Below are positions 4,239 through 62,630 of a stretch of DNA of 64,000 bases, piece after piece (the first letter of the stretch is position 1; every line of letters begins with the position of its first letter). The DNA lies in NCBI RefSeq assembly GCF_055900595.2, contig NZ_CM148325.1. One strand, 5' to 3'. A program made the translations under genes and the position numbers. Under the pieces are notes generated by a model, which was given only the letters and a program-made list of their open reading frames with translations, ran no database searches and was not told where the DNA came from.

Positions 4239-5624
4239 TTATTCCTCCAGTTTATGCGCTTTACCGTGGCGATTAAGCCCAAAAACTTTATAAATTGCCG
4301 TCACCGCCAGCATAAAGATGATACCGACAAACAGCGACATACGCGTATCTTCATTAAAGTACATGCCGATCAAAACGCAAATCAGGAATGCCATTGTTAC
4401 GTAGTTGGCCCACGGGAACAGGATTGAGCGGAACGGATGGCTGGCAATCGCCGCTTTGTGCGCTCGACGAAAACGCAACTGGCTAATCAAAATCACAAAC
4501 CATGGCACCATCCCCGGAAGCACGCTGGCACTGTAGACATAGACAAACACACGCTGTGGATTGGGAATGATGTAGTTCAGGCATGAGCCAATTAACAGAA
4601 TAGCAATTGATACCGCCACGCCTGCAACCGGAACACCTTGACGGGAAACTTTCGCCATTGCCGCCGGTAACTGACGGTTTTTCGCCAGTGCGTAGAGCAT
4701 ACGTCCACAACTGTACATGCCGCTGTTACAGCCAGAGAGCGCAGCCGTCAGTACCACAAAGTTGATAATACCCGCCGCTGCAGTAATGCCGATTTTGGCG
4801 AAAGTCAGTACGAACGGGCTGCCGTTACTGCCTATTTCATTCCACGGGAAGATGGTGACGATAACGAAAATCGCGCCTACGTAGAAAATCAGGATACGCC
4901 ACAGCACCTTGCCTACGGCACTGCGCAGCGTCACCTGCGGATTCTTCGCTTCACCGGCAGTAATGCCAATCAGCTCCACGCCCTGGTAGGACGCCACCAC
5001 AATACACAATGCGGTCAGGAACCCTTTCCAGCCACCCGCAAAGAAACCGCCATGCTCTGTGAGATTGCTAAAACCAATCGACTGCCCGCCATTGCCAAAG
5101 CCAAAGAAAATCACGCCCAGGCCAATAACAATCATCACGATAATCGTGGTGACTTTGATCATCGCGAACCAGAACTCGATTTCGCCGTACAACCGCACTG
5201 CCGCCAGATTCGCCAGCGCCACCAGCGCCACCGCGATCAATGCGGGTATCCACTGCGCCATCTCCGGGAACCAGAACTGGACATAAACGCCAATGGCGGT
5301 GATTTCTGAGATCCCCACCGCCATCCACATAAACCAGTAAGACCAGGCGGTGAGATAGCCAAAAAACGGGCTCATATAACGATGCGCATAAACGGCGAAC
5401 GAACCGGTAACCGGTTCGAGGAACAACATTTCGCCCATTGAACGCATGATGAAAAAGACAAACAGCCCGGCGATGATATAGGCCAACAATACGGATGGCC
5501 CGGCCCATTTCAGGGTACTGGCGGCCCCCATAAACAGGCCGACGCCAATGGTGCCCCCCAGGGCGATGAGTTCGATATGTCGAGCTTCCAGCCCACGCTG
5601 TAGCTCTGGTTTGTTATCTGCCAT
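4239..5624 (-). CDS. yifK: APC-family amino acid permease
   Basis: 461-aa ORF with 12 predicted hydrophobic segments and amino-acid permease-like sequence; synteny next to the wec cluster. Confidence 0.9.
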
Positions 5625-36401: not shown

Positions 36402-37922
36402 ATGTCACTGTCAATTGTTCATACCCGCGCAGCCCTGGGAGTAAATGCGCCCCCAATCACTGTTGAGGTACATATCAGTAAAGGTCTACCCGGCTTAACG
36501 ATGGTGGGCTTACCAGAAACAACGGTAAAAGAAGCTCGCGATCGCGTGCGCAGCGCCATTATCAATAGCGGATATGAATATCCGGCGAAAAAAATCACCA
36601 TCAACCTTGCTCCAGCCGATCTGCCAAAAGAAGGGGGACGATATGATTTACCTATCGCCATTGCGTTGCTGGCAGCCTCAGAACAGCTTACAGCCAATAA
36701 GTTAGATGAATATGAATTAGTCGGAGAACTGGCGCTTACAGGCGCTCTGCGTGGCGTTCCCGGCGCAATCTCCAGTGCAACTGAAGCCATTAAGTCGGGC
36801 AGAAAAATTATCGTCGCGAAAGATAACGAGGATGAAGTGGGGCTAATTAACGGTGAAGGATGCCTGATAGCCGATCATCTGCAGGCTGTCTGTGCGTTTC
36901 TGGAGGGTAAGCACGCTCTCGAACGCCCGAAACCAACTGATGCAGTATCCCGGGCGCTACAACATGATCTCAGTGATGTTGTCGGTCAGGAGCAAGGAAA
37001 GCGAGGACTGGAAATTACCGCAGCTGGCGGGCACAACCTTTTACTGATTGGACCGCCGGGAACAGGTAAAACAATGCTCGCCAGCCGTATTAATGGCCTG
37101 TTGCCAGATTTAAGCAATGAAGAGGCACTGGAGAGCGCTGCGATATTAAGTCTGGTAAATGCTGAATCAGTACAAAAACAATGGCGGCAGCGCCCGTTCC
37201 GCTCACCGCATCACAGTGCGTCGTTAACTGCGATGGTGGGCGGTGGTGCAATTCCAGGGCCTGGTGAAATTTCGCTGGCGCATAACGGCGTGCTTTTTCT
37301 TGATGAGCTACCTGAATTTGAACGGCGTACACTGGATGCCTTGCGAGAGCCGATTGAATCCGGGCAGATCCATCTTTCACGCACGCGAGCAAAAATAACC
37401 TATCCAGCCCGTTTCCAGCTTGTCGCGGCGATGAATCCCAGCCCTACCGGACATTATCAGGGAAACCATAACCGCTGCACACCAGAGCAAACGCTGCGTT
37501 ATCTCAACCGACTCTCTGGTCCCTTTCTTGACCGATTCGACCTCTCACTGGAGATCCCACTACCGCCACCCGGTATTTTGAGTAAAGCGGTTGTTCAGGG
37601 GGAAAACAGCGCCACCGTTAAACAACGCGTAATGGCCGCCAGAGAGCGCCAATTTAAGCGGCAGAATAAACTGAATGCCTGGCTGGATAGTCCGGAAATA
37701 CGCCAATTCTGCAAGCTTGAGAGCGAAGATGCGCAGTGGCTGGAAGAAACGCTGATCCATCTGGGGTTATCGATTCGTGCCTGGCAGCGGTTACTGAAAG
37801 TTGCACGAACCATTGCTGATATTGATCAGTCCGACATTATCACACGTCAGCATTTGCAGGAGGCAGTTAGCTATCGTGCCATTGACCGTTTGCTCATCCA
37901 TCTGCAAAAACTACTGACATAA
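36402..37922 (+). CDS. comM: Mg-chelatase-like AAA+ ATPase, competence protein ComM family
   Basis: Start at MSLSIVHTRAALGV after AAGGAGGG SD; Walker A GPPGTGKTMLA, ChlI/MCM-like AAA+ domain; the track ORF is 10 codons longer. Confidence 0.9.
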   Translation: MSLSIVHTRAALGVNAPPITVEVHISKGLPGLTMVGLPETTVKEARDRVRSAIINSGYEYPAKKITINLAPADLPKEGGRYDLPIAIALLAASEQLTANKLDEYELVGELALTGALRGVPGAISSATEAIKSGRKIIVAKDNEDEVGLINGEGCLIADHLQAVCAFLEGKHALERPKPTDAVSRALQHDLSDVVGQEQGKRGLEITAAGGHNLLLIGPPGTGKTMLASRINGLLPDLSNEEALESAAILSLVNAESVQKQWRQRPFRSPHHSASLTAMVGGGAIPGPGEISLAHNGVLFLDELPEFERRTLDALREPIESGQIHLSRTRAKITYPARFQLVAAMNPSPTGHYQGNHNRCTPEQTLRYLNRLSGPFLDRFDLSLEIPLPPPGILSKAVVQGENSATVKQRVMAARERQFKRQNKLNAWLDSPEIRQFCKLESEDAQWLEETLIHLGLSIRAWQRLLKVARTIADIDQSDIITRQHLQEAVSYRAIDRLLIHLQKLLT

Positions 37923-45046: not shown

Positions 45047-45739
45047 ATGCCTTTAAGCGCACAACAGTTAGCTGCACAGAAAAACCTTTCGTATGTTCTG
45101 GCTGAGAAGCTGGCGCAACGGATCTTAAAAGGTGAATATGAACCCGGCACCATTTTGCCTGGTGAGATTGAGCTGGGCGAGCAATTTGGAGTGAGTCGTA
45201 CAGCGGTACGCGAAGCGGTTAAAACGTTAACGGCAAAAGGGATGGTTTTACCGCGACCACGAATTGGTACCCGGGTCATGCCACAATCAAACTGGAATTT
45301 TCTTGATCAGGAATTGCTTACCTGGTGGATGACAGAAGAGAACTTTCATCAGGTCATCGATCACTTTCTGGTTATGCGTATCTGTCTGGAGCCGCAAGCT
45401 TGCCTACTGGCTGCAACGGTTGGCACCGCGGAACAGAAGGCGCATCTCAATACGTTAATGGCCGAAATGGTGGCATTAAAAGAGAACTTTCGCCGTGAAC
45501 GCTGGATTGAGGTCGATATGGCCTGGCATGAGCATATCTATGAAATGAGCGCCAATCCGTTTTTGACCTCATTCGCCTCGCTCTTCCATTCGGTTTATCA
45601 CACTTACTTCACGTCAATTACCAGCGACACAGTGATAAAGCTGGATCTGCACCAGGCGATTGTTGATGCGATTATCCAAAGCGATGGCGACGCGGCATTT
45701 AAAGCTTGTCAGGCGCTGCTACGCTCACCTGATAAGTGA
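45047..45739 (+). CDS. yieP: GntR/FadR-family transcriptional regulator
   Basis: 230-aa ORF with N-terminal GntR wHTH (LGEQFGVSRTAVREAVKTLTAKGMV) and FCD-type C-terminal domain. Confidence 0.9.
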   Translation: MPLSAQQLAAQKNLSYVLAEKLAQRILKGEYEPGTILPGEIELGEQFGVSRTAVREAVKTLTAKGMVLPRPRIGTRVMPQSNWNFLDQELLTWWMTEENFHQVIDHFLVMRICLEPQACLLAATVGTAEQKAHLNTLMAEMVALKENFRRERWIEVDMAWHEHIYEMSANPFLTSFASLFHSVYHTYFTSITSDTVIKLDLHQAIVDAIIQSDGDAAFKACQALLRSPDK

Positions 45740-53189: not shown

Positions 53190-55058
53190 TTAAATTTCGA
53201 CCTGAGTACCCAGTTCGATAACCCTGTTTGGCGGGATTTCAAATTGATCCGGTGCGCGCAGCGCATTACGTTGCAACAGCAAATACAGCTTGCCGCGCAA
53301 ACGCAAATACCACGGACGTTTGCCGAGGATCAGTGATTCATGCGACATAAAGAAGGAGGTTTCCATCATCCGGCAACTTAACCCTTCCAGACCACAGCGG
53401 TGGAAAACTTCTTCCACGTTTGGCGTTTCCCGCCATCCATAACTTGCCACCACGCGCCAGAAAGTGGACGACAGTTGTTCAATCTGTACCCGACGGACGT
53501 TATGGACATATGGCGCGTCTTCAGTGCGCAGAGTTAACAGAATCACCCGCTCATGCAACACCTTGTTATGTTTCAGGTTATGCATCAGTGCAAAGGGAAT
53601 GACGTTGATTGCACGCGACATATACACCGCGGTCCCTGGCACGCGAACGGGCGGTGATTTCTCCAGCGAAGCAATCATCGCTTCCAGAGAGTTGCCATGT
53701 TCATGCATCCGCCGCAGCAAGCGGAAACGCTCGCTCTTCCAGGTAGTCATCACGATAAACATTACCGTACCGAGACTCAGTGGCAACCAGCCGCCGGAGA
53801 GCAGTTTATCGAGGTTAGCGGTGAACAATGGAATATCAACACAAAGGAAAGCAATCAGGATCAGCGCAACAAAATACTTATTCCAGTGCCAGTTCTGACG
53901 TGCCACAGTAGTTGAGAGAATAGACGTCAGTACCATGGTTCCGGTCACCGCAATCCCGTACGCCGCCGCCAGGTTGCTGGAGTGCTCAAAGCTGACAATC
54001 ACAATCACGACCGCGACATAGAGCATCCAGTTCACAAACGGAATATAGATTTGCCCTGACTCCATTTCGGAGGTGTGAATAATGCGCATCGGCGACAAAT
54101 ATCCCAGACGTACCGCCTGACGCGTCAATGAGAAGACGCCAGAAATAACCGCCTGCGAGGCAATTACCGTCGCCAGTGCGGCGATGATCAGCAGCGGGAT
54201 CAGCGCCCAGTCCGGTGCCAACAGGAAGAACGGGTTCTTAATTGCTTCCGGGTTCTTTAACAACAGAGCGCCCTGGCCAAAGTAATTAAGAGTTAATGAA
54301 GGCAATACGACGGTGAACCACACCAGGCGAATCGGGAACTTACCAAAGTGCCCCATATCAGCGTACAGCGCCTCGACACCGGTAATCGACAGCACCACTG
54401 CCCCTAACGCAATAAACGAAACCGTTTTATATTCAAGGAAGAAATGCACCGCCCACATCGGATTCAACGCATGCAGTACTTCCGGGTTAGCAATAATGCT
54501 ACGCACCCCCAGTCCCGCCAGAATCAAAAACCAGGTCAGCATGATAGGCGCAAACAGCTTACCGACCATAGCAGTGCCATGTTTTTGAATCATAAATAGT
54601 AAAGTCAGAACGATGATTGAGAGGGGAACTATCCAGGTATCCAGCTGCGGAGCGACGATTTCCAGACCTTCAATGGCAGACATCACCGAAATAGCGGGTG
54701 TTATGACGACTTCACCATAGAAAAAGCTGCCGCCGATTAGCCCCATAATAACCAGCATTGATGTCGTTCGCGCCGACGTATTACGCCCGGCAAGCGACAT
54801 CAACGTCAGAATGCCCCCTTCCCCGGCGTTATCTGCCCGCATCACGAAGGTGAGATATTTAATGGAAACCACAAAGATTAGCAGCCAGAAGATCAGCGAT
54901 AAAAAGCCAAACACGGCATCGCGTTCAACGCCAAAACCAAACTGGCCGGACAAACATTCACGAAGTGTATATAACGGGCTGGTACCAATATCGCCGTAGA
55001 CAACTCCAATCGCCGCGAGGGTAATCGCGGGCAACGATTGCTTATTATCAGTGCTCAT
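53190..55058 (-). CDS. kup: low-affinity K+ uptake transporter (KUP family)
   Basis: 622-aa [35 protein letters not shown]... with 12 TM N-terminal domain and cytoplasmic C-terminal domain. Confidence 0.97.
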
Positions 55059-55280
55059 AGACTAGTCTTTCGTTGAAATATGAAATGTGTGCTTAGTCCC
55101 TTGGCCCACAAAAAAGCGCACAGTATGCACGATTAACGACAAAATCGTACTCCTAAATGCGGCCACATTAACCTGGCTCAAAGAAAAATAGACCTCTTTT
55201 GAGACTATTTTAGCCACCAGCAAGAAACGTCTATACTCGCAATTTACGCAGAACTTTTGACGAAAGGACGCCACTTCATT

Positions 55281-56777
55281 ATGGCTCACCCTCATTTATT
55301 AGCGGAAAGAATTTCCCGCCTGAGCAGTTCGTTGGAAAAGGGGCTTTATGAACGTAGCCACGCCATCCGCTTGTGTTTATTAGCGGCATTAAGTGGTGAA
55401 AGTGTGTTCCTCCTTGGCCCGCCAGGCATTGCCAAAAGTTTGATCGCCCGGCGCTTAAAATTCGCCTTTCAGAATGCCCGCGCGTTTGAATATCTGATGA
55501 CCCGCTTCTCCACGCCGGAAGAAGTTTTTGGTCCCCTTTCTATTCAGGCGCTAAAAGATGAAGGGCGCTATGAACGTTTAACCAGCGGTTACCTGCCGGA
55601 AGCAGAAATCGTCTTTCTGGATGAGATCTGGAAAGCGGGCCCGGCAATTCTTAATACCTTGCTCACCGCCATTAACGAGCGCCAGTTCCGTAACGGTGCA
55701 CACGTAGAAAAAATCCCGATGCGTCTGCTGGTGGCGGCCTCCAACGAGCTGCCGGAAGCAGACAGCAGTCTGGAAGCGTTATATGACCGCATGCTGATTC
55801 GTCTGTGGTTAGATAAAGTGCAGGATAAAGCGAATTTCCGCTCCATGCTGACCAGTCAACAGGATGAAAATGACAATCCGGTTCCTGCCTCCTTGCAGGT
55901 CACTGATGAAGAATATGAACGCTGGCAGAAAGAGATTGGTGAAATTACGCTGCCCGATCATGTATTTGAGCTGATTTTTATGCTGCGCCAGCAACTGGAT
56001 AAATTACCGGATGCGCCTTATGTCTCGGATCGTCGCTGGAAAAAAGCGATCCGCTTATTGCAGGCCAGCGCCTTTTTTAGCGGTCGCAGTGCTGTTGCCC
56101 CGGTAGATCTCATTTTGCTGAAAGATTGCCTGTGGTATGACGCGCAAAGCCTGAATTTGATACAACAACAAATTGATGTATTGATGACCGGTCATGCCTG
56201 GCAACAGCAAGGGATGTTGACCCGCCTGGGCGCGATTGTGCAACGTCACCTGCAACTACAGCAGCAACAAAGCGATAAAACAGCCTTAACGGTAATTCGT
56301 CTGGGCGGCATTTTCAGCCGTCGTCAGCAGTATCAACTCCCTGTTAACGTTACTGCTTCCAATCTGACTCTGCTGCTGCAAAAACCGTTAAAACTGCATG
56401 ATATGGAAGTGGTTCATATCTCCTTTGAGCGTAGCGCGCTGGAACAGTGGCTGAGCAGAGGTGGTGAAATTCGCGGCAAACTGAACGGTATCGGCTTTGC
56501 CCAGAAACTGAATCTGGAAGTTGATAGCGCCCAACATCTTGTCGTACGCGATGTAAGTTTACAAGGCAGTACGCTGGCACTTCCCGGTTCATCGGCTGAA
56601 GGTCTGCCAGGTGAAATAAAACAACAACTGGAAGAGCTTGAAAGCGACTGGCGCAAGCAACACGCTTTATTCAGCGAACAGCAAAAATGTCTGTTTATCC
56701 CAGGCGACTGGTTAGGTCGCATTGAAGCCAGCCTACAGGATGTCGGCACCCAGATTCGCCAGGCACAACAATGCTAA
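55281..56777 (+). CDS. ravA: MoxR-family AAA+ ATPase RavA
   Basis: Start placed at [21 protein letters not shown] (498 aa); Walker A GPPGIAKS, Walker [10 protein letters not shown]. Confidence 0.95.
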
Positions 56778-58222
56778 CGCTGGATACGCTTAATGTGATG
56801 CTGGCCGTCAGCGAAGAGGGATTGATCGAAGAGATGATCATCGCGCTGCTGGCCTCACCGCAGCTGGCAGTCTTCTTTGAAAAATTCCCACGACTGAAGG
56901 CGGCAATCACTGATGATGTTCCCCGCTGGCGTGAGGCGCTTCGCAGTCGGCTGAAAGATGCCCGAGTCCCGCCGGAACTCACCGAAGAGGTGATGTGCTA
57001 TCAGGAAAGCCAGCTCCTCTCCACGCCGCAGTTTATTGTGCAGCTACCACAGATCCTGGACTTACTGCATCGTCTGAATTCCCCATGGGCAGAACAAGCC
57101 CGACAGTTGGTTGATGCTAACAGCACGATCACTTCAGCGTTACACACACTTTTTCTCCAGCGTTGGCGTTTAAGTCTGATCGTGCAAGCAACGACGTTAA
57201 ATCAACAGCTATTAGAAGAAGAACGCGAACAACTGTTGAGTGAAGTTCAGGAACGCATGACGCTGAGCGGGCAACTTGAACCGATTCTCGCAGATAACAA
57301 TACCGCAGCTGGTCGTCTGTGGGATATGAGCGCCGGTCAGCTTAAACGTGGCGACTATCAGTTGATTGTGAAATACGGTGAATTTCTTAACGAACAGCCG
57401 GAACTGAAACGCCTGGCAGAACAGTTGGGGCGTTCCCGGGAAGCCAAATCAATACCGCGCAACGATGCGCAGATGGAAACCTTCCGTACCATGGTGCGCG
57501 AACCGGCGACCGTTCCTGAGCAGGTTGATGGACTGCAACAAAGCGACGATATTTTACGCCTTCTACCACCGGAATTGGCGACGCTGGGGATAACGGAACT
57601 GGAATATGAGTTTTATCGTCGGCTGGTGGAAAAACAATTGCTCACCTATCGCCTTCACGGTGAGTCGTGGCGTGAAAAAGTGATCGAACGCCCGGTAGTT
57701 CATAAAGATTACGACGAACAGCCGCGCGGACCGTTTATTGTCTGCGTGGATACTTCCGGCTCAATGGGCGGCTTTAATGAACAGTGTGCGAAAGCGTTCT
57801 GTCTGGCATTGATGCGCATAGCCCTCGCTGAAAACCGGCGCTGCTATATTATGCTATTTTCCACCGAGATCGTCCGTTATGAGCTTTCAGGCCCACAAGG
57901 TATTGAGCAAGCGATCCGCTTTTTAAGTCAGCAGTTTCGTGGTGGCACCGATCTTGCCAGTTGTTTCCGCGCCATTATGGAACGCTTGCAAAGCCGGGAA
58001 TGGTTTGATGCCGATGCGGTGGTGATTTCTGATTTTATCGCCCAGCGGTTGCCTGATGATGTGACGAGCAAAGTGAAAGAGTTGCAGCGGGTACATCAGC
58101 ATCGCTTTCATGCCGTGGCGATGTCGGCACATGGCAAACCCGGCATCATGCGCATTTTCGATCATATCTGGCGCTTTGATACCGGGATGCGAAGCCGCCT
58201 GCTCAGACGCTGGCGGCGATAA
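56771..58222 (+). CDS. viaA: von Willebrand factor A-domain protein ViaA
   Basis: 483-aa ORF with C-terminal VWA/MIDAS motif (VCVDTSGSM); 7-nt overlap with ravA. Confidence 0.95.
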
Positions 58223-58226
58223 ACAA

Positions 58227-59219
58227 TTACAGCAGAGAAGGGACGCTCTCGCGAACAGCAGTAGGCCATACACCACACTGAACCTGACCGATATGTGGTA
58301 GTTGCAACAGCAGCATGGTCAAACGAGACTGGCCGATACCGCCGCCAATGGTCTGCGGCATTTCACCGCGCAGCAGCGCCTGATGCCACTCCAGCTGCAG
58401 GCGATCTTCGTCACCGGTCAGCGCCAGCTGATGCTTCAACGTTTCGGCATCCACGCGAATCCCCATGGAAGAAAGCTCAAACGCATCTTCCAGTACCGGG
58501 TTCCACACCAGAATATCGCCGTTCAAACCCGCATGGCCCAGCTCTGACGGGGTGCTCCAGTCATCATAATCCGGTGCGCGCACGTCGTGACGATGACCAT
58601 CACTCAACTTGCCGCCAATCCCGACGAGGAATACCGCGCCAAGATCTTTCGCAATCGCCCGCTCACGTCCTTTGGCATCGAGATCCGGATAACGAGCCAG
58701 TAACTCCTGGCTGTGTACGAAGTGGATCTGATCCGGCAGGAACGGTGCCAGGCCAAACTCTTCGCTAACTGCAGCTTCGGTTGCTTTAATTCCCGCCCAG
58801 ATCGCCTCTACCGTGCTTTTCAGAGTCGAGAATTGACGCTCGCCGTCGCCCATTACGCGTTCCCAGTCCCACTGGTCAACATAGACCGAGTGCAACGGGG
58901 AAAGACGGTCTTCATCGGGGCGAAGGGCTTTCATGTGCGTGTACAGCCCTTCGCCTGCGCTGAAGTCGTGTTGCCCTAAGGTCTGACGTTTCCACTTCGC
59001 CAGTGAATGAACCACTTCGAACTGGGCATCAGGCAGAGCTTTCACTTTTACCTGCACCGCTTTTTCACAGCCCGACAAGTTATCCTGCGTGCCATCCCCC
59101 ACACGGCTAAGAATCGGCGCCTGGACTTCAATCAGCCCCAGACGTTCTTCCAGTTGACGAGAAAAGTGAGATTTCACGAAGCTAATTTGACGTTGTTTGG
59201 CAATGTAAGCGGTTTTCAT
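58227..59219 (-). CDS. asnA: aspartate-ammonia ligase (asparagine synthetase A)
   Basis: 330-aa [51 protein letters not shown]... Confidence 0.97.
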
Positions 59220-59918: not shown

Positions 59919-60362
59919 ATGGCAGATATCACTCTTATCAGCGGCAGCACCCTCGGCGGTGCCGAATATGTAGCAGAACACCTGGCTGAAAAGCTGGAAG
60001 AGGCGGGTTTTACCACCGAAACGCTGCACGGTCCGCTGTTGGAAGATTTATCTGCCTCTGGGATCTGGCTGGTTATCAGCTCAACCCACGGTGCCGGAGA
60101 TATTCCGGACAACCTTTCTCCTTTCTATGAAGCATTGCAGGAACAGAAGCCCGATCTTTCTGCGGTCCGCTTTGGCGCAATCGGTATTGGTAGTCGTGAA
60201 TATGACACCTTTTGTGGGGCTATCGATAAACTCAAGGCAGAACTCAAAAATTCCGGTGCAAAACAGACAGGCGAAACACTGAAGATCAACATCCTTGATC
60301 ACGAAATTCCGGAAGATCCGGCAGAAGAATGGCTGGGATCGTGGATTAATTTACTCAAATAA
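59919..60362 (+). CDS. mioC: flavodoxin-like FMN protein MioC
   Basis: 147-aa ORF MADITLISGSTLGGAEYVAEHLAEKLEEAGF... (flavodoxin fold), transcribed toward oriC. Confidence 0.95.
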   Translation: MADITLISGSTLGGAEYVAEHLAEKLEEAGFTTETLHGPLLEDLSASGIWLVISSTHGAGDIPDNLSPFYEALQEQKPDLSAVRFGAIGIGSREYDTFCGAIDKLKAELKNSGAKQTGETLKINILDHEIPEDPAEEWLGSWINLLK

Positions 60363-60384
60363 GTATACAGATCGTGCGATCTAC

Positions 60385-60652
60385 TGTGGATAACTCTGTC
60401 AGGAAGCTTGGATCAACCGGTAGTTATCCAAAGAACAACGGTTGTTCAGTTTTTGAGTTGTGTATAACCCCTCATTCTGATCCCAGCTTATACGGTCCAG
60501 GATCACCGATCATTCACAGTTAATGATCCTTTCCAGGTTGTTGATCTTAAAAGCCGGATCCTTGTTATCCACAGGGAAGTGCGATCCTAATAAGAGATCA
60601 CAATAGAACAGATCTCTAAATAAATAGATCTTCTTTTTAATACCCAGGATCC
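60385..60652. other. oriC: chromosomal replication origin oriC
   Basis: Reverse complement of canonical E. coli oriC: DnaA boxes R4 (60385..60393 tgtggataa), R3 (60424..60432), R2 (60459..60467), R5/M (60510..60518), R1 (60565..60573 ttatccaca); three AT-rich 13-mers at 60587..60599, 60602..60614, 60618..60630; 13 GATC sites; BamHI site ggatcc at 60647..60652. Confidence 0.97.
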
Positions 60653-60740
60653 CAGGTCTTTCTCAAGCCGACAAAGTTGAGTAGAATCCACGGCCCGGGC
60701 TTCAATCCATTTTCATACCGCGTTATGCGAGGCAATCACC

Positions 60741-62630
60741 ATGTTTTATCCGGATCCTTTTGACGTCATCATCATTGGCGGGGGTCATGCAGGCACCGAG
60801 GCCGCGATGGCCGCGGCGCGTATGGGTCAACAGACTCTGCTTTTGACACACAATATCGACACGCTGGGGCAGATGAGCTGCAACCCGGCGATCGGCGGTA
60901 TTGGGAAGGGACATCTGGTAAAAGAAGTGGATGCACTCGGCGGTCTGATGGCGAAAGCGATCGATCAGGCGGGTATCCAGTTTAGGATACTAAACGCAAG
61001 CAAGGGACCGGCAGTTCGCGCTACCCGAGCTCAGGCGGATCGTGTGCTCTACCGTCAGGCAGTACGTACGGCGCTGGAGAATCAACCGAATCTGATGATC
61101 TTCCAGCAGGCGGTTGAAGATCTTATTGTCGAAAATGATCGCGTGGTCGGTGCTGTTACCCAAATGGGACTGAAGTTCCGTGCCAAAGCCGTCGTGCTCA
61201 CCGTTGGGACGTTCCTCGACGGTAAAATTCATATCGGTCTGGATAACTACAGCGGTGGCCGTGCTGGTGATCCGCCGTCCATTCCGCTCTCTCGCCGTTT
61301 GCGTGAACTGCCGCTGCGCGTTGGTCGTCTGAAAACCGGGACACCGCCGCGTATTGATGCGCGTACTATCGACTTCAGCGTGCTGGCGCAACAGCATGGC
61401 GATAACCCAATGCCGGTATTCTCGTTTATGGGCAATGCGTCCCAGCATCCACAGCAGGTGCCGTGTTATATCACTCATACCAACGAGAAAACCCATGATG
61501 TGATCCGCAGTAACCTCGATCGTAGCCCAATGTACGCAGGGGTGATCGAAGGTGTCGGCCCACGCTACTGTCCGTCGATCGAAGACAAAGTCATGCGCTT
61601 CGCCGACAGAAATCAGCATCAGATCTTCCTTGAACCGGAAGGGCTGACCTCTAACGAAATTTATCCGAACGGTATCTCCACCAGCCTGCCGTTCGATGTG
61701 CAGATGCAAATCGTCCGCTCCATGCAGGGGATGGAAAACGCGAAGATCGTGCGTCCGGGATATGCCATTGAGTATGACTTCTTCGATCCACGCGACCTGA
61801 AACCGACGCTGGAGAGCAAGTTTATCCAGGGGCTGTTCTTTGCTGGTCAGATTAACGGCACTACCGGTTATGAAGAAGCCGCTGCGCAAGGTTTGTTGGC
61901 CGGTCTTAACGCTGCCCGTCTGTCTGCTGACAAAGAAGGTTGGGCTCCGGCGCGTTCTCAGGCGTATCTCGGCGTACTGGTTGATGACCTGTGCACTTTA
62001 GGAACCAAAGAACCGTATCGTATGTTTACCTCGCGCGCAGAATATCGTCTGATGCTGCGCGAAGATAATGCGGATCTGCGTTTGACTGAAATTGGTCGTG
62101 AACTGGGCCTGGTGGATGACGAACGTTGGGCGCGCTTTAACGAGAAACTTGAGAATATCGAGCGTGAGCGTCAGCGTCTGAAATCGACCTGGGTAACCCC
62201 GTCGGCGGAAGCTGCAGCCGAAGTGAATGCTCACCTGACTGCGCCGCTTTCCCGTGAAGCCAGTGGTGAAGATCTGCTGCGTCGTCCGGAAATGACTTAT
62301 GAAAAATTAACCATGCTGACGCCGTTTGCCCCTGCGTTGACAGACGAACAGGCGGCGGAACAGGTTGAGATTCAGGTTAAATACGAAGGTTACATTGCGC
62401 GCCAGCAAGATGAGATCGAAAAGCAGCAGCGTAACGAGAATACCTTGCTGCCAGCGACGCTGGATTACCGCCAGGTATCCGGTCTTTCTAACGAAGTGAT
62501 CGCCAAACTTAACGATCACAAACCGGCTTCTATCGGTCAGGCTTCGCGTATTTCTGGCGTCACGCCTGCTGCCATCTCCATTCTGCTGGTGTGGCTAAAA
62601 AAACAGGGTATGCTGCGTCGTAGCGCATAA
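60741..62630 (+). CDS. mnmG: tRNA uridine-5-carboxymethylaminomethyl modification enzyme MnmG (GidA)
   Basis: 629-aa ORF with N-terminal FAD-binding [10 protein letters not shown] motif. Confidence 0.97.

Follow-up and report, generated by a model that had tools for sequence, protein, structure and literature searches.

In published accounts, NorQ-NorD, CbbQ-CbbO and the MoxR protein of structure 2R44 represent systems in which a hexameric MoxR ATPase is led to its target complex by a VWA adaptor with a MIDAS motif. The RavA-ViaA pair of Escherichia coli K-12 (yieN-yieM; PDB 3NBX, 6Q7L/6Q7M, 6SZA/6SZB and 7UGC) follows the same plan but, unlike NorQ-NorD and CbbQ-CbbO, carries a LARA and a RavA-C domain in RavA and a VAN domain and a lipid-binding arginine helix in ViaA. 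It is known to associate with LdcI, Frd, Nuo and the membrane, compared to cNOR or Rubisco for other MoxR/VWA pairs. The locus analysed here shares with the K-12 system the genes, their synteny, the ATGCTAA junction, the domains and the motifs, and its RavA shows weak sequence similarity to 2r44_A.

Published work reports ravA-viaA to be an operon and has characterised both products extensively. ViaA binds RavA, most likely the hexamer, in a nucleotide-dependent manner with stimulation of the RavA ATPase, and the RavA K52Q mutant has no activity in vivo. The LARA domain of RavA binds LdcI and lipids and docks on LdcI to form the LdcI-RavA cage. The Arg-rich C-terminal helix of ViaA is a lipid-binding site, which with its residues R476 and R479 and together with the LARA domain contacts anionic lipids of the inner membrane; the R476E/R479E replacements abolish both lipid binding and gentamicin sensitisation, and chromosomal mutants in the lipid sites of the ViaA helix and LARA likewise lose gentamicin sensitisation. 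The VWA domain of ViaA binds FrdA, and the ViaA C-terminal domain and LARA connect the pair with FrdA and Nuo subunits. Frd-dependent persistence is lowered by RavA-ViaA, an effect that requires K52 to be active and depends on each of the three ViaA domains (PMC10585395). Under anaerobic, fumarate-respiring or low-energy conditions, the pair is described as making cells more sensitive to aminoglycosides in a pmf-dependent way and as reducing their persistence. One group finds that Frd and Nuo activity are unaffected by RavA-ViaA, while the group of PMC10585395 disagrees with regard to Frd, and the physiological role and the exact molecular substrate of RavA-ViaA are disputed.

In the 64,000-nucleotide stretch of DNA that we analysed (the window), the locus consists of two co-directional genes, each supported by the ORF table, the sequence, NCBIfam, PDB and RefSeq:

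55281..56777, + strand: ravA coding sequence, 498 aa, MoxR-class AAA+ ATPase RavA
56771..58222, + strand: viaA coding sequence, 483 aa, encoding ViaA, the VWA-domain partner of RavA

Based on the ORF listing and the raw sequence, ravA runs from ATG 55281 to the stop codon TAA at 56775-56777 and viaA from ATG 56771-56773 to the stop codon TAA at 58220-58222. The mechanical ravA ORF opens further upstream at TTG 55257. As this TTG is not conserved in relatives, and as ATG 55281 gives the N-terminus MAHPHLL of the solved structures, we take ATG 55281 as the ravA start. RavA scores 989.9 bits against the NCBIfam equivalog NF010054 (cut-off 681), with residues 1-498 lying on profile positions 1-498, and ViaA scores 878.5 bits against the equivalog NF008230 (cut-off 500) over residues 1-483.

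Of 5426 complete E. coli genomes, 5422 contain the 3.2-kb region with the two genes, which is chromosomal every time. Only 12 of the 5422 match it with at least 99% identity over the 3.2 kb, and eight genomes among the matches listed are 100% identical. The RefSeq record of a 100%-identical strain annotates ravA and viaA, also with a 7-nt overlap, flanked by kup and asnA. Here too kup lies divergent and asnA convergent, with the locus near oriC. The viaA gene directly follows ravA at its 3' side in the window and in all 80 Enterobacterales loci used for comparison. The convergent viaA and asnA genes have 4 nt between their stop codons, and this gap ranges from -4 to +8 nt in 50 of the 52 loci measured. 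We hold with great confidence that the locus is the chromosomal E. coli ravA-viaA operon and that its overlap, a presumed termination-reinitiation and the published function form one explanation. The identities, coordinates and motifs that the first-pass annotation had assigned to both genes are all borne out by the ORFs, NCBIfam, Pfam, PDB and RefSeq.

RavA contains the complete set of elements described for the K-12 protein:

55416..55439, + strand: Walker A motif GPPGIAKS, RavA residues 46-53, including K52; invariant in 80/80 sequences
55608..55625, + strand: Walker B motif IVFLDE, RavA residues 110-115; invariant in 80/80 sequences
55959..56174, + strand: AAA lid domain, RavA residues 227-298 (Pfam AAA_lid_8, E = 4.9e-22)
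56283..56588, + strand: LARA domain, RavA residues 335-436 (Pfam LARA_dom, E = 9.1e-39; PDB chains 4upf_D and 5fl2_K)
56610..56771, + strand: RavA C-terminal domain, residues 444-497 (Pfam ATPase_RavA_C, E = 2.7e-23)

The AAA+ core is recognised by the Pfam families bpMoxR and AAA_5, of which bpMoxR is the best N-terminal match. The LARA domain, whose presence the first-pass annotation had left to be established by alignment, is thus found in RavA, and the protein is near-identical to the two PDB chains, which comprise LARA only. Compared to the K-12 protein in PDB 6Q7L/3NBX/6SZA, 493 of 498 residues are identical; the five substitutions relative to the structure sequence (D203A, A204S, T361N, K393R and A490T) imply nothing functional. 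From this identity and the literature, the RavA encoded here would be expected to form the hexamer, to have ATPase activity and to assemble the cage with LdcI.

ViaA is made up of an N-terminal helical domain and a C-terminal VWA domain with a middle region between them:

56771..57343, + strand: N-terminal helical domain ('VAN fold'), ViaA residues 1-191 (PDB 7ugc_A, E = 1.5e-116)
57728..58219, + strand: ViaA C-terminal VWA region with MIDAS (Pfam VWA_CoxE and VWA_2; motif positions)
58187..58219, + strand: Arg-rich amphipathic C-terminal helix, ViaA residues 473-483, including R476 and R479 (sequence)

The VAN fold of the N-terminal domain has been described in PMC10585395, and 7UGC is its NMR structure. 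The MIDAS motif begins with DTSGS at ViaA residues 327-331 (nt 57749-57763) and is completed by T393 and D421. All five residues (D327, S329, S331, T393 and D421) are invariant in 75 of 75 sequences, as are the lipid-binding residues R476 and R479.

We then characterized the junction between the two genes, the features of which are:

56771..56777, + strand: 7-nt overlap ATGCTAA, comprising the viaA start codon, one base and the ravA stop codon (sequence)
56760..56763, + strand: weak SD-like CAGG in ravA codons Q494-A495, whose AGG ends 7 nt upstream of the viaA ATG (sequence, codon comparison)

The viaA frame is -1 relative to ravA, with the viaA start codon 4 nt before the ravA stop codon, and 56771 is the first start codon downstream of the in-frame upstream stop. 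The sequence and the RefSeq annotation of the identical strain both confirm the overlap that had been proposed at this position. A published K-12 primer (…CGCCAGGCACAACAATGCTAA) demonstrates that the K-12 junction is identical, ATGCTAA. For comparison, a scan of a genome collection returned 80 other Enterobacterales species, ranging from Escherichia to Pectobacterium, with RavA proteins 66-96% identical. Two loci (L035 and L055) have ordinary junctions with frameshifts further inside, and the species tallies are given after correction for these and for four Klebsiella/Raoultella loci with a later viaA start. The overlap is 7 nt long in 36/80 species, 4 nt in 31/80 and 1 nt in 11/80, while a 5-nt gap is found in 2/80 species, both Pectobacterium. 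The start-stop spacing thus stays within -7 to +5 nt in 80/80 species and takes only the values -7, -4, -1 or +5. Judged from this comparison, the conserved feature is the tight apposition of start and stop codon more than the exact length of 7 nt.

This arrangement closely resembles E. coli gene pairs for which coupling has been measured. Huber et al. (2019, 2023) found four of five overlapping pairs tested to be strictly coupled by termination-reinitiation, with bioBF uncoupled, and coupling was nearly gone at gaps of ~20 nt. A spacing of -8 to +10 nt predicts termination-reinitiation in E. coli, and at such distances subunits of heteromeric complexes are overrepresented 4.5-fold. The coupled pairs of Huber et al. 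resemble ravA-viaA in being co-directional with interacting products and in their spacing, which in both cases falls inside about -8 to +10 nt; they have an SD-like motif within the upstream gene, for which the weak CAGG would be a candidate counterpart in ravA. Junctions of the ATGA and TAATG types are more frequent than the 7-nt form, and relatives use all three. We consider it probable that ravA and viaA are translationally coupled. The first-pass annotation had called the overlap consistent with such coupling, which is a reasonable reading, given that the apposition is conserved in 80 species and that overlaps of this type predict coupling in E. coli. Ribosomes ending ravA at UAA 56775-56777 would then re-initiate at AUG 56771, possibly aided by the weak CAGG 7 nt upstream, and ViaA synthesis would track that of RavA at a fixed but lower level, roughly 1:4.

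Quantitative westerns in the literature give ~350 RavA and ~90 ViaA molecules per cell. Equimolar expression of the two proteins is therefore not supported, and the stoichiometric co-expression that had been proposed for the pair is overstated. The ratio of 350:90 could be compatible with a RavA hexamer and a ViaA dimer. It is tempting to regard the overlap as a conserved tuning device, in which CAGG-aided reinitiation would set ViaA at roughly a quarter to a third of RavA and the 7-, 4- and 1-nt forms would retune this level in different lineages, a proposal that we put forward tentatively and hold to be rather doubtful. If true, the tuned ratio would correspond to a RavA hexamer paired with one ViaA dimer, and tuning by the form of the junction would add a new detail to an operon already known without amounting to a new kind of system. 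The CAG bias at Q494 is suggestive of an SD-like signal: this codon is CAG in 76 of 78 species, compared to an average CAG share of 75% in 19 conserved Gln columns. As one other Gln column of ravA is equally biased, the bias is no more than suggestive.

The overlap might instead be incidental, with ViaA initiated independently from a weak SD of its own and the tightness of the junction reflecting no more than pressure for genome compactness. This possibility, which we rate as somewhat unlikely, would be in line with a conserved CAGG suitably spaced before the viaA ATG and with the lack of coupling at the bioBF overlap. Moreover, according to the literature ViaA is still made when a cat cassette replaces ravA. 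The RNA of the junction (56716-56835) folds no more stably than shuffled sequence (z = +1.17). Thus, there is no sign in this segment of a hairpin that blocks independent initiation of viaA or bars free access of 30S subunits, and a hairpin enforcing the coupling of ravA and viaA was dropped as a candidate on the basis of the same value. Arguing against an incidental overlap, in all 80 species the start and stop codons remain -7 to +5 nt apart though the exact form of the junction shifts, the SD-like motif of viaA is only 3-4 nt long, and four of the five tested E. coli overlaps are strictly coupled, with coupling collapsing at gaps of about 20 nt.

The in-frame start codons GTG 56795 and ATG 56798 (codons 9 and 10), 18-21 nt past the ravA stop, could in principle serve as a downstream start and would leave the genes without overlap. 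We rate such a downstream start as very improbable. ViaA residues 1-9 are conserved as protein: codons 2-9 are indel-free and change mostly at third positions, the commonest base accounting for ~77%, 88% and 49% at codon positions 1, 2 and 3. In contrast, only 39 of 79 sequences have Met at codon 10, codon 9 encodes V, I, T, M, A or L, and neither 56795 nor 56798 is preceded by an SD-like sequence. At the codon corresponding to ViaA residue 1, 75 of 81 sequences, the window included, have ATG, GTG or TTG. In four Klebsiella/Raoultella loci viaA starts one codon later, giving ATGA, and a start codon is found at the homologous viaA codon 1 or 2 in 80/80 species. Position 1 of the NF008230 profile also aligns with ViaA residue 1. 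Since codons 2-9 look like coding sequence while starts at codons 9 and 10 are poorly conserved, the annotated viaA start appears well supported by this comparison, and the overlap can be regarded as real in that the start position is common to 80 species and the codon-10 alternative is unconserved.

A role as an anti-phage or conflict system of the MoxR-VWA type, as opposed to a housekeeping chaperone-like function, would be suggested by the best N-terminal Pfam match of RavA, as bpMoxR is named for MoxR-vWA-beta-propeller ternary systems. This is extremely unlikely for ravA-viaA: a third, beta-propeller gene is absent at the locus, PADLOC returns noise-level AAA hits only for RavA (E = 0.003) and none for ViaA, and no phage-resistance phenotype was found reported in the literature examined. 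Furthermore, ravA and viaA are core genes, with the kup-ravA-viaA-asnA synteny fixed in 5422/5426 E. coli genomes and the 80 compared species. A RavA-ViaA fusion produced by -1 ribosomal frameshifting near the end of ravA, to which the -1 frame of viaA and its being open for 45 nt upstream of the ATG could point, is rejected as having next to no likelihood, as both an X XXY YYZ slippery heptamer and a stable downstream structure are absent at the ravA end, published westerns and purifications show RavA and ViaA as separate proteins, and the Pectobacterium junction is a 5-nt gap.

The ravA-viaA locus is a well-studied, already characterised operon, and the observation of its overlapping genes is correct yet ordinary. 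To regard it as the operon of the window whose function is least resolved, as the first-pass annotation did, goes too far: RavA-ViaA has published structures, interaction partners and phenotypes, and yifB, yieP and an orphan PemK/MazF toxin gene in the window are less studied. As the genes, structures, partners and phenotypes have been published, the locus is of little weight as a discovery. Its practical interest is that RavA-ViaA sensitises enterobacteria to aminoglycosides and lowers persistence in low-energy anaerobic conditions. The present analysis adds comparative support for the annotated viaA start and indicates that it is the apposition of start and stop codons, not the exact 7-nt overlap, which is conserved across Enterobacterales; coupling at the junction would be relevant to the control of RavA:ViaA ratios.

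Expression of the operon is reported to depend on sigma-S aerobically and on Fnr anaerobically. To the reported Fnr control no site could be assigned, as the kup-ravA intergenic region contains no match to the FNR consensus TTGAT-N4-ATCAA even when up to 2 mismatches are allowed. The nearest FNR-like site (55038-55051) lies inside kup, and the 40 such sites in the window as a whole do not exceed chance (31.7 ± 5.4). A sigma-70 promoter scan of positions 54900-58600 gave 0 hits against 3.4 expected, and the same interval contains eight terminator-like hits against 4.3 ± 2.0 expected, which are weak and mostly intragenic. Rfam searches, with the gathering threshold on the whole window and with E ≤ 10 on 55000-55330, returned nothing in or beside the operon. 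Upstream of ravA, conservation points to two elements:

55231..55237, + strand: CTATACT (C at -13), a sigma-S-like candidate for a -10 element, 43 nt upstream of the ravA ATG (conservation)
55264..55268, + strand: ravA Shine-Dalgarno AAGGA, 12 nt before the ATG, which is unusually long (conserved AAGGA/AAGGAT block)

TATACT is invariant in a 14-species alignment, and in 56 of the 80 upstream regions examined TATA[AC]T precedes the ravA ATG by 40-47 nt. CTATACT fits the sigma-S-type -10 consensus and is a candidate for the -10 element of the ravA-viaA promoter. A GTGCATACTGTGCGC motif is conserved as well. In nearly all species an in-frame ATT is located immediately 5' of the ravA ATG.

The kup-ravA intergenic region, which separates the divergently transcribed kup and ravA genes, holds a conserved motif at window positions 55116-55130. 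Its sequence, GCGCACAGTATGCAC, is invariant or near-invariant upstream of kup in the window and in the ravA-viaA loci of 80 other Enterobacterales species (L002-L081), and its reading on the strand of kup is GTGCATACTGTGCGC, after which comes a T-run. Allowing up to 3 mismatches, we found a 19-nt core holding this motif in 73 of the 80 other species, in most of them 47-64 nt upstream of the kup ATG. This spacing to kup persists even where the distance from the core to ravA reaches 190-334 nt. A terminator-like hit on the minus strand (55131-55117) lies over the motif, and a comparison with Rfam gave no match for it. The motif looks like the kup core promoter, comprising CATACT as the -10 element and a discriminator rich in G and C; alternatively, it resembles a small hairpin of the leader that carries a U-tract.

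Some of the compared loci (L004-L013, L039 and L043), which belong to Citrobacter, Salmonella, Raoultella and Klebsiella, have an insertion of approximately 110-125 nt that separates this motif from kup. The inserted sequence includes …GTGAATCCCCTGG…GTGACTGGGG…GCAGCCAACGCAGA… and appears to resemble the consensus of the ERIC repeat.

At the ravA start (window 55264-55283) the spacing between the Shine-Dalgarno sequence AAGGA and the ATG is 12 nt, which is unusually long. An in-frame ATT immediately precedes this ATG (ATTATG) in nearly all of the 80 species, which may reflect a start-context preference or have another cause. Two relatives carry frameshifts in viaA, namely Phytobacter massiliensis (L035), with a one-base shift in a T-run at about position 5595 of its locus, and Kluyvera genomosp. 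3 (L055), where the frame is disrupted at several points between 5581 and 6622. The frameshifts represent either sequencing errors or pseudogenes, and the ravA-viaA junction is normal in both genomes.

Downstream, viaA and asnA are convergent and their stop codons are only 4 nt apart (gap 58223-58226, within window 58220-58229); in 50 of 52 related loci this gap measures -4 to +8 nt. Because it leaves no space for a terminator, the viaA and asnA transcripts must run into each other. Wong et al. 2014 found few genes altered in both their ravA::cat and their overexpression microarrays; asnA was one of them, and its change may reflect an effect in cis.

Of 5422 E. coli genomes, just 12 share at least 99% identity with the 3.2 kb of window 55059-58226, the remaining genomes being 95-99% identical. 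Judged by sequence identity, the window strain is of an uncommon lineage at the ravA-viaA locus. Compared with RavA of K-12, the window protein has five substitutions, of which T361N and K393R fall in the LARA domain.

Three other genes of the window are not as well characterised as ravA-viaA; their positions were converted from the annotation of a 100%-identical strain:
26052-26501, plus strand, orphan toxin gene of the PemK/MazF family, located between ppiC and rep
36402-37922, plus strand, yifB, Mg-chelatase-like AAA ATPase
45047-45739, plus strand, yieP, GntR-family regulator

Finally, mioC ends at 60362 and is followed by mnmG; oriC is therefore expected between the two and should occupy this gap, at about 60363-61000 of the window.
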